From the UHGV virus genome UHGV-1847494: a DNA stretch of 21,641 nucleotides; one strand, 5' to 3'. A program made the position numbers and the translations under genes. The notes under the pieces were generated by a model, which was not told the DNA's origin, ran no database searches, and was given only the letters and a program-made list of their open reading frames with translations. This document shows, piece after piece, positions 1-4,469 of this stretch. Position 1 is the stretch's first letter, and every line of letters starts with the position of its first letter. This DNA is from a virus.

Positions 1-86
1 TATATGGCTGATTTATAATTGTGAGTTTAATATTATGTTGACTCACTCATTGATCCAATACCTAACTTTACCAGCAACCCCTCCGT

Positions 87-121
87 CCCCAGTAGCACTG
101 GCTGCTGGGGTGCGTTTTATT
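87..121 (+). terminator. Putative rho-independent terminator upstream of the ParB-like gene
   Basis: Inverted repeat ccccagtagc / gctgctgggg (10-bp stem with one G.U pair, loop actg) at 87-110, followed by tgcgttttatt. Seen directly in sequence; function inferred. Confidence 0.45.
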
Positions 122-137
122 CATAAAGCAAGGCTGT

Positions 138-929
138 ATGAGCGAGAAATTAAAGATAGTCTATCGCCCATTACAAGAATTGTCACCGTATGCGCACAAC
201 GCCAGGACGCACAGCCCTGAGCAGGTGGCACAACTGGTAGAAAGTATTAAGCAATTCGGCTGGACTAATCCGGTGCTGATTGACGAAAAGGGCGAAATTA
301 TTGCGGGTCACGGTCGTGTTATGGCGGCTGAAATGCTCAAAATGGATTCTGTTCCGGTCATTGTTCTGTCTGGCCTGACGGATGAGCAGAAAAAGGCGTA
401 CCGCCTGGCAGATAATCGCCTGCCGATGAATGCTGGCTGGGATGAAGATCTGTTGCGGATGGAGCTGTCGGACCTAATCAATGCTGATTTTGATGTCTCC
501 CTGACAGGCTTCATCCCGACAGAAATTGATGAACTGTTGACGGATGTTTTGCCCGGTACAGGAAATGAGGAGGAGCCGTATACGACGAAAATTGATACGC
601 CTGTTTATGAGCCGTCGGGCGGTAAACCGGATATCAGTGAACTGTACGACGATACGAAAACTCAGGAGCTGATCAGCCGGATACGTTCGGCGTCCCTTGA
701 GCCTGATATTGAGAAATTCCTCCTGTGTGCGGCAGAACGTCACACGGTGTTTAATTTCAGCAGAATTGCGGACTATTACGCTCACGCCCCCTCTGAAATT
801 CAGTGTTTTTTCGAGGAGTCGGCGCTGGTGATCATTGATTATCAGCAGGCTATTGAAAATGGATTTGTCCGGATGACGCAGCGCATGGTGGAGATCATGC
901 ATGGTGGTGAGGAGGAGGAATATGCGTGA
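138..929 (+). CDS. ParB/Srx-like nuclease-domain protein (ParB N-terminal domain), C-terminal ~150 aa uncharacterised
   Basis: 263-aa ORF. The N-terminal 90 aa follow the ParB N-domain pattern (LxPYxxNxRxH ... EIIAGHGRVMAA ... VPVIV ... LADNRL). Sits immediately upstream of the terminase genes, a common position for ParB-like genes in lambdoid phages. Recognition is from memory of the family, not a search. Confidence 0.8.
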   Translation: MSEKLKIVYRPLQELSPYAHNARTHSPEQVAQLVESIKQFGWTNPVLIDEKGEIIAGHGRVMAAEMLKMDSVPVIVLSGLTDEQKKAYRLADNRLPMNAGWDEDLLRMELSDLINADFDVSLTGFIPTEIDELLTDVLPGTGNEEEPYTTKIDTPVYEPSGGKPDISELYDDTKTQELISRIRSASLEPDIEKFLLCAAERHTVFNFSRIADYYAHAPSEIQCFFEESALVIIDYQQAIENGFVRMTQRMVEIMHGGEEEEYA

Positions 930-1854
930 TGATTTTTGCGCCTTTATTCTGACTCACGGGCGACCGGACAAAGTTCTGACTTACCGGACGTTGCGTCGTG
1001 CTGGCTATACCGGGAAAATTTTTATCGTTGTTGATGATGAAGATAAGACACGGAATCAGTACATGGCTGAATTTGGTGAACAGGTGCTGGTGTTTTCCAA
1101 AGCCGATATCGCCAGTCGTTTTGACGAAGCCGATAATTTCTGTGACCGCCGCTCAATTTTTTACGCCCGTAATGCCTGTTTCGACCTGGCAAAACTGGTC
1201 GGGTGTAAATACTTCATTCAGCTCGATGATGATTATCACGAGTTCCAGTTTCGGGTGGATCGCAACTATGACCAGGCCTATTTTCCGATAAGGAAACTGG
1301 ATGCGATCCTTTCTGAAATGCTGGCGTACTACGAATCAATACCTGCTCTTTCCATCGCTATGTCGCAGGGCGGGGATTTTCTTGGTGACAATGGCGGCCA
1401 TGCTTCGTGGGTGAAACGCAAGGCAATGAACAGCTTTATCTGTTCGGTTGATCGACCGTTCTCATTCATGGGGCGCATTAACGAGGATGTGAATACGTAC
1501 ACGAATCTCGGTCGCTGTGGTGAATTGTTTATGACGATCGGTGCTGTCCAGTTAGGGCAGAAACAGACGCAGAAAAACAGCGGCGGAATGACCGAGCTGT
1601 ATCTGGATTCCGGAACCTACGTTAAAAGTTTTTACTCCGTCATGTATGCGCCGTCGTGCGTAAAAATCTCACTGATGGGTGCCAGCCATAAACGCATTCA
1701 CCATCAGGTCACCTGGAACAACGCTGCAGTAAAAATCCTTCACGAAAAATACAGGAAGAAGACACCCTGCATATCAATGGGGGTGACAAATGATTCCGTA
1801 TTCGAAAGTCGAGTCTCTGGCAGCGTGCCGGATGACTGCACAACAAATCGCTGA
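922..1854 (+). CDS. Hypothetical protein, translationally coupled to the ParB-like gene; possible GT-A-like nucleotide-sugar transferase fold (speculative)
   Basis: Strong SD GGAGGAGGA at 911-919 precedes ATG 922, so I prefer 922 over the track start at 901. The start overlaps the ParB stop (927-929) by 8 nt. Contains acidic motifs IFIVVDDEDK and YFIQLDDDYHEF that resemble a DxD motif. The fold assignment is inference only. Confidence 0.55.
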   Translation: MRDDFCAFILTHGRPDKVLTYRTLRRAGYTGKIFIVVDDEDKTRNQYMAEFGEQVLVFSKADIASRFDEADNFCDRRSIFYARNACFDLAKLVGCKYFIQLDDDYHEFQFRVDRNYDQAYFPIRKLDAILSEMLAYYESIPALSIAMSQGGDFLGDNGGHASWVKRKAMNSFICSVDRPFSFMGRINEDVNTYTNLGRCGELFMTIGAVQLGQKQTQKNSGGMTELYLDSGTYVKSFYSVMYAPSCVKISLMGASHKRIHHQVTWNNAAVKILHEKYRKKTPCISMGVTNDSVFESRVSGSVPDDCTTNR

Positions 1855-2041
1855 CGTTCTGGATGTTGATCTGAACCGACTGAAAGAAAATCGGGAAGCA
1901 ATGACAGATTTTTATGCGGCCATCCGTAAGGGCAGAGCGAAAGGTGAAGCCGAGTTACGAGCGGCATTGTTTAAGCTTGCCAGAAAAGGGGATGCCTTTG
2001 CTCTGCGCGAACTACTCAGGGTGGATAAAAATCAGGACTAA
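1790..2041 (+). CDS. Small putative HTH DNA-binding protein (83 aa)
   Basis: ORF preceded by GGGGGTGA 5 nt upstream of ATG 1790; overlaps the previous gene end by 65 nt. Basic helical sequence (IADVLDVDLNRLKEN ... KGRAKGEAELR) looks like an HTH. In the same frame as terS, separated only by TAA 2039-2041 plus 3 nt. Confidence 0.4.
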   Translation: MIPYSKVESLAACRMTAQQIADVLDVDLNRLKENREAMTDFYAAIRKGRAKGEAELRAALFKLARKGDAFALRELLRVDKNQD

Positions 2042-2044
2042 CTG

Positions 2045-3139
2045 ATGAGCAGACCGGACTGGGGGGCGTTGCAGCAGGAGTATATTGCTGAATACACCCG
2101 CTCCGGTATATCTCCGGTGGCATGGTGTGAAGCAAGGGGACTGAATTACGCAACAGCCCGTCGTTACATCAAAAAAACTCCGAAAAATGCGCAGACAGAA
2201 ATGTGCAAAACTGCGCAAAAAAGTGCGCAGAAAAAATCTGCGCAGACTGCACAAAAGCGGAACGAAAAATCTCAGGAAAAAAAGCCAGTATTCGATGCGG
2301 GCCTGAATGAGGGCGACGCGGAGGAATTTTCGTTCTGTCCCGATGAATTCGGCATTTCTGACCAGCAGGCTAAGTTTGCGATGCTTGTTGCTCAGGGTAA
2401 AAAGCCGACAGAGGCGTACCGACTAGCCGGTTATGAGGGGCAAGGTGCGACAGCTAACAGCAACGCCAGTCGTATGCTTAGAAATGCCAGGGTTTTTCGC
2501 GCTATCAGCTACTTCCGCAATCAGTACCAGAAACGCTATACCGCAGACCTGGATTTACTAGTGAGTCAGTTGATGGCTATTGTCCTGGCCGACCCCAATC
2601 AGCTTGCACAATTTCGCCGTGTTAACTGCCGTTATTGCTGGGGCGAGAATCATCTCTACCAGTGGCGCGATATAGCAGAATTCGACAAGGCAGCGGCGCA
2701 GGCTTCCAGAGATGGCAAACCCGAACCGGAATATGGAGGCCTCGGCTTTGTTGATAACGCCATACCCAATCCGGACTGCCCGAAGTGCTGCGGTGAGGGA
2801 ACGGGACAGCTTTATATGGCTGATACCACTCTGCTTGATGGGGATGCGCGGCAATTATATGCAGGGGCAAAATTCGGAAAATTCGGCGTTGAGATCCTGC
2901 TGGAGGATAAGGCTGCCGCCCGGCGTGAATTGTTGCGTTTGCTTTCTGCTGGCGGGGATTTATGTGCAGATAAGCGGCTACAGGAACTGGAAATTGAACG
3001 GCGCAGAATGGAAAACCAGAAGCTGCGCAAAGAGATCGAAACGGTGGAAGATAATGAACATCCCCAGCCTGTGGCGATCAATATTAATGTGGTTGATGCC
3101 AGAGTAAGGAGTGATGAAGATGATCTCTCCGACGCTTAA
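2045..3139 (+). CDS. Terminase small subunit (Terminase_2-like core), unusually long with Cys4 zinc-ribbon-like motif and C-terminal coiled coil
   Basis: 364-aa ORF directly upstream of the terminase large subunit. Central segment QQAKFAMLVAQGKKPTEAYRLAGYEG...NASRMLRNARV resembles the HTH core of small terminases. CRYC ... CPKCC motifs lie at about nt 2626-2800. The basic C-terminus is rich in R/E/L (LQELEIERRRMENQKLRKEIE). Confidence 0.7.
   Translation: MSRPDWGALQQEYIAEYTRSGISPVAWCEARGLNYATARRYIKKTPKNAQTEMCKTAQKSAQKKSAQTAQKRNEKSQEKKPVFDAGLNEGDAEEFSFCPDEFGISDQQAKFAMLVAQGKKPTEAYRLAGYEGQGATANSNASRMLRNARVFRAISYFRNQYQKRYTADLDLLVSQLMAIVLADPNQLAQFRRVNCRYCWGENHLYQWRDIAEFDKAAAQASRDGKPEPEYGGLGFVDNAIPNPDCPKCCGEGTGQLYMADTTLLDGDARQLYAGAKFGKFGVEILLEDKAAARRELLRLLSAGGDLCADKRLQELEIERRRMENQKLRKEIETVEDNEHPQPVAININVVDARVRSDEDDLSDA
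2185..2256. repeat. Periodic TGYGCA / A-tract repeat inside terS (candidate pac site or terminase binding array)
   Basis: TGCGCA at 2188, 2212, 2224 and 2239; TGTGCA at 2202; TGCACA at 2248. Spacing is 9-15 bp (about one helical turn), interleaved with A4-6 tracts. Encodes the low-complexity AQ/K-rich linker of TerS. Confidence 0.4.
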
Positions 3140-3164
3140 TGTGCCTCAGGCGCGATTTCTTTCA

Positions 3165-4469
3165 ATGCCCCATAAATTTAAAGCAGATCGGAAGAGCGTC
3201 GTGTAGGGAAAGAGTGTAGATAAATTTAAAGCCTATATTGCTGGTTTTGGCTCGGGCAAAACATGGGTTGGGTGTGGCGGCATATGCAAGGGGATTTGGG
3301 AGCATCCAGGTATAAATCAGGGATATTTTGCGCCAACGTATCCCCAAATTCGCGATATTTTTTACCCTACAGTGGAAGAAGTTGCTGCTGACTGGGGATT
3401 GAACGTAAAAATTAATGAGGGAAATAAAGAGGTTCACTTTTATTACGGACGCCAGTATCGGGGAACCACTATCTGCAGATCGATGGAGAAGCCACAAACG
3501 ATCGTCGGTTTCAAAATTGGTAATGCGTTGGTGGATGAACTGGACATTTTGCCGAAGGAAAAAGCCAGAACGGCGTGGCGCAAGATAATTGCGCGTATGC
3601 GTTATAAGATTGATGGACTTCGCAACGGTATTGACGTTACAACCACGCCGGAAGGATTCAAATTTGTCTACGAGCAGTTTGTTAAAGCCGTGCGTGAAAA
3701 AACAGAGCTGGCCTCACTGTATGGTCTGGTGCAGGCATCTACTTTCGATAATGAAAAGAACCTGCCAGCAGATTACATTCCTTCGCTTCTTGAATCATAC
3801 CCTCCAGAGCTGATTAAAGCCTATCTGCGAGGACAGTTTACTAACCTGACAAGTGGTACTGTTTACCATCAGTTTGACCGGAAACTGAATAATTGCGAAG
3901 AAGTGGAGCAGCCAGGGGAGCCGATTTATATTGGGATGGATTTTAACGTTGGAAAGATGGCGGGAATCGTCCATGTGCTGCGTTTGGGGCTTCCATGTGC
4001 GGTAACTGAAATCATCAATGCCTACGATACGCCGGATATGATCCGCATCATTAAAGAACGCTTCTGGCTGTATGATGGGAATGATTACCGGAAAGTGAGG
4101 GAAATTTATATTTATCCAGATGCTTCCGGGGATTCCAGAAAATCAAGTAACGCAAGTACGACGGATATAGCCCAGCTTAAGCAGGCTGGTTTTAACGTTG
4201 TGGTGAACAGCTCGAACCCGCCAGTAAAAGATCGCGTTAACTCAATGAATGCAATGTTCTGCAATGCCAATGGTGAGCGTCGCTATAAAGTTAATGTGAA
4301 GCGTTGCCCGTTATATGCCGAATCTCTGGAGCAACAGGTCTGGGATGAGAAGGGGGAGCCTGATAAAAAATCTGGCAATGATCACCCGAATGATGCCGGA
4401 GGTTATTTCATCGTTAAGCAATTCCCTATTGTCAAACCGACCGGAAGAGTCACATCACTTCGGATTTAA
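3165..4469 (+). CDS. Terminase large subunit (ATPase/nuclease); 5' end interrupted in this assembly by the adapter-derived insertion carrying an in-frame TAG at 3204-3206
   Basis: Walker A motif KFKAYIAGFGSGKTW is encoded at 3222-3266, upstream of the track start at GTG 3372 and in the same frame. No ATG/GTG/TTG lies between the TAG and the Walker A. Removing one repeat copy plus the adapter (48 nt) restores ATG 3165 with N-terminus MPHKFKAYIAGFGSGKTW. The uninterrupted frame as given is 3207..4469. Confidence 0.8.
3185..3221. other. Illumina TruSeq universal adapter sequence (reverse complement), an assembly or library artifact
   Basis: agatcggaagagcgtcgtgtagggaaagagtgtagat is an exact 37-nt match to the reverse complement of the TruSeq universal adapter 3' end. 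It is flanked by a duplicated genomic 13-mer ATAAATTTAAAGC (3172-3184 and 3220-3232). The antisense translation gives the adapter-signature peptide LSLHDALPI (track ORF 3162..3497, minus strand). Confidence 0.93.

Follow-up and report, generated by a model that had tools for sequence, protein, structure and literature searches.

A predicted TAGT-family glycosyltransferase strictly co-inherited with a ParB-like protein upstream of phage terminase genes: a candidate two-component DNA glycosylation module

Why should a prophage of Escherichia coli carry, immediately before its packaging genes, a gene for a ParB-like protein that overlaps a gene for a putative sugar transferase? This question is raised by positions 138-1854 of the virus genome UHGV-1847494 (21,641 nucleotides (nt), read 5' to 3' and referred to in its full length as the window), which corresponds to the late region of an E. 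coli lambdoid prophage that is intact and of the Rac type. The first gene of the pair (open reading frame (ORF) 1) is the full-length form of the Rac prophage gene ynaK. The product of the second gene (ORF2) is identified, by sequence membership and structural modeling, as a GT-A glycosyltransferase of the TET/JBP-associated glycosyltransferase (TAGT) family. Our analyses have established that the two genes are strictly co-inherited in both directions, and they suggest that the pair probably serves in DNA glycosylation, with the ParB-like protein as a helper. The TAGT family, its GT-A fold and a general link between ParB-like domains and DNA modification are already in the literature and in Pfam; Iyer and colleagues are said to have defined the family, and to have discussed ParB in DNA modification, in 2013. 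The literature that we have searched contains no study of a two-gene cassette lacking TET or of full-length YnaK; an earlier computational description of the cassette may exist (Iyer et al. 2013).

The two genes and the families of their products

The features of the pair are as follows.

138-929, + strand: ParB-like gene, ATG 138 to TGA 927-929, 263 amino acids (aa) (Pfam ParB_N; phrog_620)
138-542, + strand: ParB nucleotide-binding domain, residues 1-135 (HMMER alignment to Spo0J/ParB structures; Foldseek)
579-614, + strand: near-invariant linker motif YTxKIxxPxYEP, residues 148-159 (ortholog alignment)
633-902, + strand: helical C-terminal domain, residues ~166-255 (model helices and conservation)
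909-920, + strand: Shine-Dalgarno-rich stretch GAGGAGGAGGAA, GGAGG-rich, inside the end of the ParB-like gene (read from the sequence)
922-929, + strand: 8-nt overlap of the TAGT start codon (ATG 922) with the end of the ParB-like gene (TGA 927-929) (sequence)
922-1854, + strand: predicted TAGT-family GT-A glycosyltransferase gene, 310 aa, isoelectric point (pI) 8.0 (Pfam PF20691; phrog_842; model)
1033-1044, + strand: first acidic motif, D38-D39-E40-D41 (IVVDDEDK), where beta-strand 2 (residues 32-38) of the model ends
1225-1233, + strand: DxD motif, D102-D103-D104 (QLDDDY), at the end of the strand 97-102 in the model

The longest frame of ORF2 opens at 901; since its orthologs all begin with MRDDFCAF, the true start is the ATG at 922 and not 901, with the stop at 1852-1854. 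The protein, which RefSeq names 'GREB1-related protein', matches Pfam PF20691 (TAGT) with 121.1 bits (cut-off 27.5, E 7.6e-35), its residues 8-222 aligning over positions 4-205 of the 205-position model, and it matches phrog_842 with an E of 1e-103. A search for homologs has recovered at least 8000 matches, with PF20691 found on every match listed. The AlphaFold2 (AF2) model (predicted local distance difference test (pLDDT) 78, predicted template modeling score (pTM) 0.77) has a Rossmann-like GT-A topology of alternating strands and helices. In the PDB, Foldseek recovered only GT-A transferases (viz. COLGALT1, AvpGT, GalNAc-T2, SunS, and SpsA; E 1e-4 to 1e-5), all of them matching at a generic GT-A level (template modeling (TM) score ~0.3-0.45). 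Among the predicted viral structures of BFVD, the best matches are TAGT-domain phage proteins (E 1e-25, TM 0.73/0.80), and the beta-glucosyl-HMC-alpha-glucosyltransferase of the T4-like Klebsiella phage PKO111 is matched with an E of 7e-8. A sequence search of the PDB with the TAGT profile gave nothing at E<=1, and hence the fold assignment rests on the model. D38, D41, D102-D103-D104, N187, D189, and H261 do not vary among 47 TAGT homologs, and conservation of at least 90% is seen at E188 and H260; D102-D104 is expected to be the site for metal and nucleotide-sugar binding. About 60 C-terminal residues that are conserved in the ParB-linked TAGT subfamily fall outside the Pfam model. The E. 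coli and Shigella proteins also carry a C-terminal tail of ~22 residues (window 1790-1854) which is absent from other genera (310 aa vs. 289 aa) and which, in E. coli, overlaps the start of the next small terS-like ORF.

The protein encoded by ORF1 is acidic (pI 4.5), matches Pfam PF02195 (ParB_N) with 28.9 bits (cut-off 26.3) and phrog_620 with an E of 8.5e-91, and is named ynaK or ParB/Srx N-terminal domain protein in RefSeq. The best Foldseek matches of its N-terminal domain are Noc (7nfu, E 1e-5), PadC, and the ParB of Myxococcus xanthus with cytidine triphosphate (CTP). HMMER alignment to Spo0J places N21-A-R23 on the QPR box, S36 and G41 on the cytosine-contacting serine and glycine, A-G-H58-G-R60 (AGHGR) on AGERR, and D92-N93 on EN, and the arginine of GxxR is present; N21, R23, S36, G41, H58, R60, and N93 thereby occupy positions of CTP binding or CTP hydrolysis in chromosomal ParB. 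Read against the residue roles assigned in M. xanthus (as quoted in PMC13229309), the phosphate and base contacts are predicted to be kept and both hydrolysis residues to be replaced (Q to N21 and E to H58). The N-domain fold and the CTP-contact positions R23, S36, G41, R60, and N93 are common to YnaK and to chromosomal and plasmid ParB, Noc, and KorB, which are CTP-dependent DNA clamps; YnaK differs from these proteins in having neither a helix-turn-helix parS-binding domain nor a ParA, in its replaced hydrolysis residues and in its acidity. Residues 10-144 of YnaK match the N-domain of prophage ParB-DNA methyltransferase fusions (phrog_498, E 1e-50; PADLOC MTase_II, E 2e-38), such as Bce_0392 of Bacillus cereus, which are enriched in prophage regions (PMC12704722). 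The N-terminal ~140 residues of these fusions are closely related to YnaK, whereas the catalytic partner here is a separate sugar transferase and YnaK has a C-terminal domain of its own in place of the methylase.

The linker motif lies inside residues 136-158 of the YnaK model, which are predicted to be disordered (pLDDT <50), and in orthologs from many phyla Y148, P155, and Y157 never vary, with T149 and K151 conserved to at least 90%. The C-terminal half, which matched no family in Pfam, bears the signatures AAxRHxVF[ND][YF]xxIAxYY and ExSALVIID; a search of 1.84 billion proteins with it recovered 1189 cluster representatives (E<=1e-3), nearly all of which carry it at the C-end of a protein of 250-300 aa, and across phyla this part is more conserved than the N-domain. 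Both ORFs are genuine genes, and each of the two proteins has thousands of homologs. In the annotated E. coli sequence NZ_AP024112 (locus L001), PGAP calls the identical and intact 263-codon ParB-like gene a 258-nt 'ynaK' pseudogene 'missing C-terminus' (L001:20138-20395, equivalent to window 138-395), which leaves ~530 nt of the full-length gene unannotated; the name of the K-12 remnant has there been transferred to the full-length gene.

An original prediction made from the letters of the window alone had anticipated much of this. The ParB N-terminal domain with an EIIAGHGR motif, which it recognized in ORF1, is borne out by Pfam, phrog_620, the Spo0J alignment and Foldseek, and the C-terminal half that it left unassigned indeed belongs to no Pfam family, yet is a conserved domain. 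The 310-aa second frame from ATG 922, its 8-nt overlap and its strong Shine-Dalgarno sequence are confirmed from the sequence; the acidic motifs IFIVVDDEDK and FIQLDDDYHEF are present and contain the invariant aspartates, and the GT-A-like fold suggested from them agrees with the AF2 model, Foldseek, and membership of PF20691. Its one shortcoming was that it could assign the second protein to no family known to it, which a profile search resolves with the 121-bit PF20691 match and that to phrog_842.

Linkage of the two genes and their carriers

GAGGAGGAGGAA stands directly upstream of the TAGT start codon, and an 8-nt overlap behind a Shine-Dalgarno sequence is consistent with translational coupling. 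Across phyla, 102 loci have an estimated overlap of 8 nt between the ParB stop and the TAGT start, and 33 loci have one of 11 nt. The set of loci anchored on TAGT comprises 161 members (80 from species-representative genomes, 80 from IMG/VR, and L001), ~117 of which fall outside the E. coli-like group. In 159 of the 161, TAGT is preceded on the same strand by a full-length ParB ortholog, and the other two begin at a contig edge. In the reverse direction, TAGT is found downstream in 79 of 80 loci anchored on the ParB C-domain, and the remaining locus ends at a contig edge. Six apparent gaps in the pairing have been resolved as three ParB-TAGT-TAGT tandems, one overlooked adjacent ParB, one shortened ParB 157 nt away, and one TAGT fused to an S-adenosylmethionine (SAM)-methyltransferase domain. 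The ParB C-domain occurs only with TAGT in the samples examined. The co-occurrence that the original prediction had proposed as a check is thus observed, and the two results that it named as contrary to its view, a non-transferase family for the second protein and a lack of co-inheritance, stand against a GT-A family with a DxD motif and a linkage that extends across phyla. The DNA-modification or anti-restriction module that it envisaged is implied by the family assignments (TAGT proteins being DNA sugar transferases, and the ParB N-domain being fused to methyltransferases), with its function being what we infer.

The pair is carried in Enterobacteria, Bacteroidota, Clostridia, Veillonella, Lactobacillus, Planctomycetota, Saccharibacteria, and SAR11-like metagenome-assembled genomes (MAGs), and its cultured carriers include phages of Lactobacillus, Nocardia, Vibrio, and Porphyromonas as well as the haloarchaeal virus HHTV-2. 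The TAGT proteins of Bacteroidota, Firmicutes, candidate-phyla MAGs and the haloarchaeal virus are 45-60% identical to the E. coli protein, while the terminase and capsid families of the carriers differ, which argues for a universal acceptor; conservation this close to universal across hosts and virion protein families points to DNA or the co-inherited ParB-like protein itself as the acceptor, rather than a host- or virion-specific target. The pair is found directly 5' of terS/terL in each terminase class (viz. Terminase_2, _3, _4, _6, GpA, and TerL_ATPase), and in Lactobacillus phage c5 it constitutes ORF1 and ORF2, beginning 90 nt from the cos end.

No gene other than the ParB and TAGT partners is consistently linked to the pair. 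Of 117 diverse loci, 10 have a C5-methylase gene ~5 kb upstream and 8 contain an N6/N4-methylase gene. Two tandem TAGT paralogs follow a single ParB in L056, L058, and L075; TAGT is fused to a C-terminal class-I SAM methyltransferase in L157:6001-7719 and L058:3581-5275, and a methyltransferase is fused to the ParB N-terminus in L028:189-1739. In 13 of 80 loci, a gene encoding a His_Phos_1 (His-phosphatase) and a cytidylyl/adenylyl-transferase domain is inserted between ParB and TAGT (e.g. L179:4734-5702; also the IMG/VR loci L180, L182, and L185); the TagD-like and RfaE-domain-II-like NCBIfam matches of its nucleotidyltransferase are both below cut-offs, and the gene plausibly makes a nucleotide-activated donor. 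The optional add-on genes in relatives of the E. coli pair point to glycan building. A metagenomic HK97-like phage with the ParB-TAGT pair has four consecutive GT2-family glycosyltransferase genes just after its capsid gene (L162:17837-20316; also L163), the products of which may act on the capsid or on a longer glycan.

The acceptor and the competing explanations

In the explanation that we favor, the two genes would be transcribed late, together with the packaging operon, and their translation would be coupled. The basic GT-A enzyme would take a sugar from a nucleotide-sugar at its DxD/metal site and would move it onto phage DNA that has been replicated and is about to be, or is being, packaged. 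The acidic ParB-like protein would be its obligatory adaptor or activator on double-stranded DNA, its invariant linker peptide and C-domain offering a likely docking surface for the C-terminal segment of TAGT at residues ~218-285, which is conserved and poorly modeled; the likely benefit would be protection of the injected genome from host nucleases. That the pair acts in DNA glycosylation with ParB as helper we hold to be probable. We infer DNA as the target, YnaK as the activator, a physical complex of the two and a protective role. TAGT is read as DNA-acting because its characterized relatives act on the bases or sugars of DNA, and DNA as the target is further supported by the N-domain that YnaK shares with DNA-methyltransferase fusions and by the mostly basic TAGT orthologs (median pI 8.9). 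The role of YnaK as a partner is supported by the two-way co-inheritance, by the 8/11-nt overlap in 135 loci and by an architecture like that of ParB176.

This last comparison is with the 5mYOX176/ParB176 system (PNAS 2026, PMC13229309), in which the ParB, like YnaK, lacks a DNA-binding domain and consists of a nucleotide-binding domain with conserved NTP-contact residues, an unstructured linker and a C-terminal domain, and is encoded beside a post-replicative DNA-modifying enzyme. Specifically on double-stranded DNA, one subclass of phage thymine dioxygenases requires phage ParBs; mutations of the NTP site of these ParBs do not abolish function, and the enzymes to which this ParB-dependent class is linked are kinases, amidotransferases and amino-acid transferases, not glycosyltransferases (PMC13229309). 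Earlier work attributed to Aravind and colleagues proposed that, as packaging proceeds, DNA-modification enzymes are brought to DNA by phage ParBs (PMC8256090). The two systems differ in that the partner there is a dioxygenase and here a glycosyltransferase.

To our knowledge, every documented phage DNA glycosylation starts from a hydroxylated pyrimidine (hydroxymethylated or, in RB69-type phages, 5-hydroxycytosine), and we know of no hydroxymethylpyrimidine in E. coli DNA. In the Rac-type prophage region (int to gpJ) and in the complete genomes of phi jlb1 (38 kb) and c5 (32 kb), no TET/JBP protein, thymidylate-synthase-like hydroxymethylase, dCMP hydroxymethylase, DNA methylase, or second glucosyltransferase is annotated; nor is a ParA, which is likewise not annotated in the other neighborhoods listed. 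In phi jlb1, none of the unassigned proteins reaches the size of a dioxygenase, the 1.4-kb gap that precedes the ParB gene contains no ORF >73 aa, and the larger hypothetical proteins of c5, phi jlb1, and HHTV-2 have no Pfam match. No TET/JBP family recurs in the 117 diverse neighborhoods, and TET/JBP is not among the 25 commonest of the 89 Pfam families in a census of 150 neighborhood cluster representatives, a result that speaks to its recurrence and not to its absence. ORF2 also shares PHROG 842 with the T2/T6 beta-glucosyl-HMC-alpha-glucosyltransferase, from which that label is transferred to ORF2, and ORF2 distantly matches the homologs of this enzyme in T4-like Aeromonas phages (22-24% identity). 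T-even phages make hydroxymethylcytosine (hmC) before replication, and their first glucose is added by another enzyme. Since this pathway is not annotated in the three genomic regions above, the transferred name is not justified as a function.

ORF2 resembles the other PF20691 proteins (relatives of which are the base-J glucosyltransferase JGT and GREB1) in sequence membership, GT-A fold, and DxD motif, and also in being phage-encoded near packaging genes; it differs in that its obligate neighbor is a ParB-like protein, with no TET/JBP or cytosine methylase partner found in those three regions. The TET/JBP association gave the family its name and is not a sequence criterion. The documented relatives transfer a sugar onto hydroxymethylpyrimidines or onto a sugar already attached (PMC13390438; bioRxiv 2023.12.21.572611): phage GT-A enzymes glycosylate 5-hydroxymethylcytosine (5hmC) (bioRxiv 2023.12.21.572611), and the second glucose of diglucosyl-hmC in T6-type phages is attributed to TAGT (PMC13390438). 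It is tentatively conceivable, and at present doubtful, that a ParB-activated GT-A enzyme glycosylates ordinary unmodified DNA, at a canonical base or at the backbone, with no prior hydroxymethylation; about half of the credence that we give to DNA glycosylation with ParB as helper falls to an acceptor of this kind.

A number of observations weigh against DNA glycosylation by a YnaK-activated enzyme. The known TAGT-type enzymes need a hydroxyl on 5hmC, on 5-hydroxymethyluracil (5hmU) or on an attached sugar, and E. coli DNA offers none, so that the enzyme must either use a new chemistry or act on something other than DNA. Pfam TET/JBP annotation is missing from thousands of 5mYOX-like phage sequences and divergent dioxygenases can escape PF12851 (PMC13229309), which together with a census of 25 among 89 families makes a hidden hydroxylase possible in some phages. 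The TAGT relative GREB1 O-GlcNAcylates a protein (PMC7968844). The ParB orthologs are all acidic (pI 4.1-5.5, median 4.6), no helix-turn-helix or other recognizable DNA-binding domain is found in YnaK, and its model is of modest quality (pLDDT 65). The GxxR arginine is missing in 3 of 14 diverse orthologs, and hence a nucleotide switch cannot be universal. Finally, the literature searched contains no experiment on the ParB-TAGT pair.

The alternative that survives best, which we regard as improbable, is that DNA stays unmodified and TAGT glycosylates a protein, either YnaK itself (on the tyrosines or threonine of YTxKIxxPxYEP, in the manner of glycogenin) or another one. Within the disordered linker segment, Tyr148 and Tyr157 are invariant and Thr149 is nearly so, the high conservation of the co-inherited pair would also follow from a co-evolving acceptor, and both the protein-modifying GREB1 and the lack of any base hydroxylase seen in the Rac-type region, phi jlb1, and c5 favor this explanation. 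The same invariant motif is equally well explained as a docking peptide for the enzyme, and the peptide S-glycosyltransferases and glycogenin that appear among the fold matches do so only at the generic GT-A level given above. The ParB N-domain is of the kind fused to DNA methyltransferases, and the nearest viral structural relatives of ORF2 are DNA-modification TAGTs; virion and terminase proteins are unlikely targets because those families differ between carriers.

Still less credence is due to a conventional TAGT role, in which the enzyme would extend or decorate 5hmC, 5hmU, or a first sugar made by an unrecognized, highly divergent dioxygenase or hydroxymethylase encoded elsewhere in the phage or host. 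No other chemistry has been documented for the family (PMC13390438; bioRxiv 2023.12.21.572611), and the unannotated 5mYOX-like sequences and the upstream C5-methylase of 10 of the 117 loci are in its favor. It is opposed by the lack of any candidate in the Rac-type region and in two complete phage genomes, one of which (phi jlb1) has neither a protein nor a gap before ParB that could accommodate one, by larger hypothetical proteins without a Pfam match, by the finding that no such gene recurs near the pair, and by E. coli DNA, in which no hydroxymethylpyrimidine is known.

A comparably slight probability attaches to the possibility that YnaK is a nuclease or packaging-site factor working with terminase and that TAGT acts on a soluble molecule, for example to disarm a host defense signal, the two being linked by timing only. 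The pair constantly stands directly 5' of terS/terL and, in phage c5, immediately follows the cos site, as would suit such roles; ParB-family domains can be nicking nucleases or NTPases (PMC5512222), and a nucleoside-glycosylating GT-A enzyme (AvpGT with Ara-A) is the second-best PDB fold match, although a weak one (TM 0.45). Shared timing leaves unexplained the 8/11-nt overlap and a two-way linkage of nearly 100% across phyla and terminase families, as well as a ParB C-domain seen only with TAGT, and no PADLOC model matches TAGT. That YnaK is a genuine prophage partition or segregation protein beside an unrelated moron transferase, as its ParB N-domain and the name 'chromosome (plasmid) partitioning protein' in phage records might suggest, is scarcely credible and is effectively refuted by membership tests, since its TIGR00180 (ParB/RepB/Spo0J) match, confined to residues 11-94, falls at 38.5 bits below the cut-off of 58.45, the prophage is integrated and has no annotated ParA, no helix-turn-helix domain is found, and the gene is always coupled to TAGT.

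Prophage setting and significance of the pair

The features that flank the pair are as follows.

87-120, + strand: intrinsic terminator, stem-loop 87-110 and T-run (terminator scan)
1832-2041, + strand: small ORF resembling part of the small terminase subunit, 69 aa (phrog_309 terminase small subunit, E 8e-23)
2045-3139, + strand: small terminase subunit (Pfam Terminase_2; phrog_51, E 2e-76)

Positions 1-3184 of the window match several induced "Escherichia phage vB_EcoS" records, as well as many E. coli chromosomes, with 100% identity. The gene order of the annotated Rac-type prophage L001 (NZ_AP024112) is intR, xisR, ralR, recT, recE, kilR, racR, ydaS-V, the lysis genes, trkG, ynaK, "GREB1-related protein", a small ORF, terS, terL, and portal. 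As trkG lies directly 5' of the pair in this prophage, the terminator just 5' of the ParB-like gene closes the upstream trkG moron. The small ORF that follows TAGT has either 69 aa from ATG 1832 (the RefSeq coding sequence in L001) or 83 aa from 1790, and the packaging genes, marked by the gene for the small terminase subunit, begin directly 3' of the pair.

Among 5426 complete E. coli genomes, 889 contain at least 80% of the 1717-nt pair, and remnants of it are present in 1580 genomes; K-12 retains only the first 254 nt, as ynaK fused to ydaY. The base composition of the pair is similar to that of its neighbors and hence gives no sign of a recent foreign origin. Rac deletion remnants with a truncated YnaK are found in many E. 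coli genomes, indicating that the module decays frequently. In the E. coli contigs L168-L172, the first ~165 residues of YnaK are joined to the chromosomal znuA neighborhood or directly to terL. YnaK variants limited to the N-terminal ~165 residues were considered as a modular swap of partners, and this was rejected as they are Rac deletion remnants joined to chromosomal or terminase sequence.

Two further observations concern the terminase genes of the window. An Illumina adapter (AGATCGGAAGAGCGTCGTGTAGGGAAAGAGTGT) and a 13-nt duplication (ATAAATTTAAAGC) are inserted 65 nt into terL at 3185-3232, resulting in an in-frame TAG. This insert is absent from the annotated E. coli locus L001, and the E. 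coli and phage matches listed for window 1-3200 all stop at 3184; it looks like an assembly artifact, with terL not really broken. Within terS, 4 of the 11 TGCGCA palindromes of the window fall within 57 nt (2188-2244), in a stretch coding for the repetitive peptide KTAQKSAQKKSAQTAQK, and this cluster could be a pac site or TerS-binding repeat or a mere by-product of the peptide repeat.

The cassette is unusual in combining a predicted sugar transferase and a ParB helper with no known handle-making enzyme nearby. Resolving its acceptor would reveal either a new DNA chemistry or another target for 'DNA-type' transferases and phage ParBs, and a helper role for YnaK would add a second class to the DNA-modifying enzymes that phage ParBs have recently been found to activate. 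If unmodified DNA is the acceptor, the pair would be a complete system of two genes for DNA glycosylation and would represent a new type of DNA modification. Its carriers would then be about one in six complete E. coli genomes, temperate as well as virulent phages from many bacterial phyla, and at least one archaeal virus. The system is readily testable, as intact Rac-type E. coli prophages and small cultured Lactobacillus phages carry it. It would also explain what ynaK, whose K-12 remnant was called uncharacterized as recently as 2026 (PMC12924614), once did.

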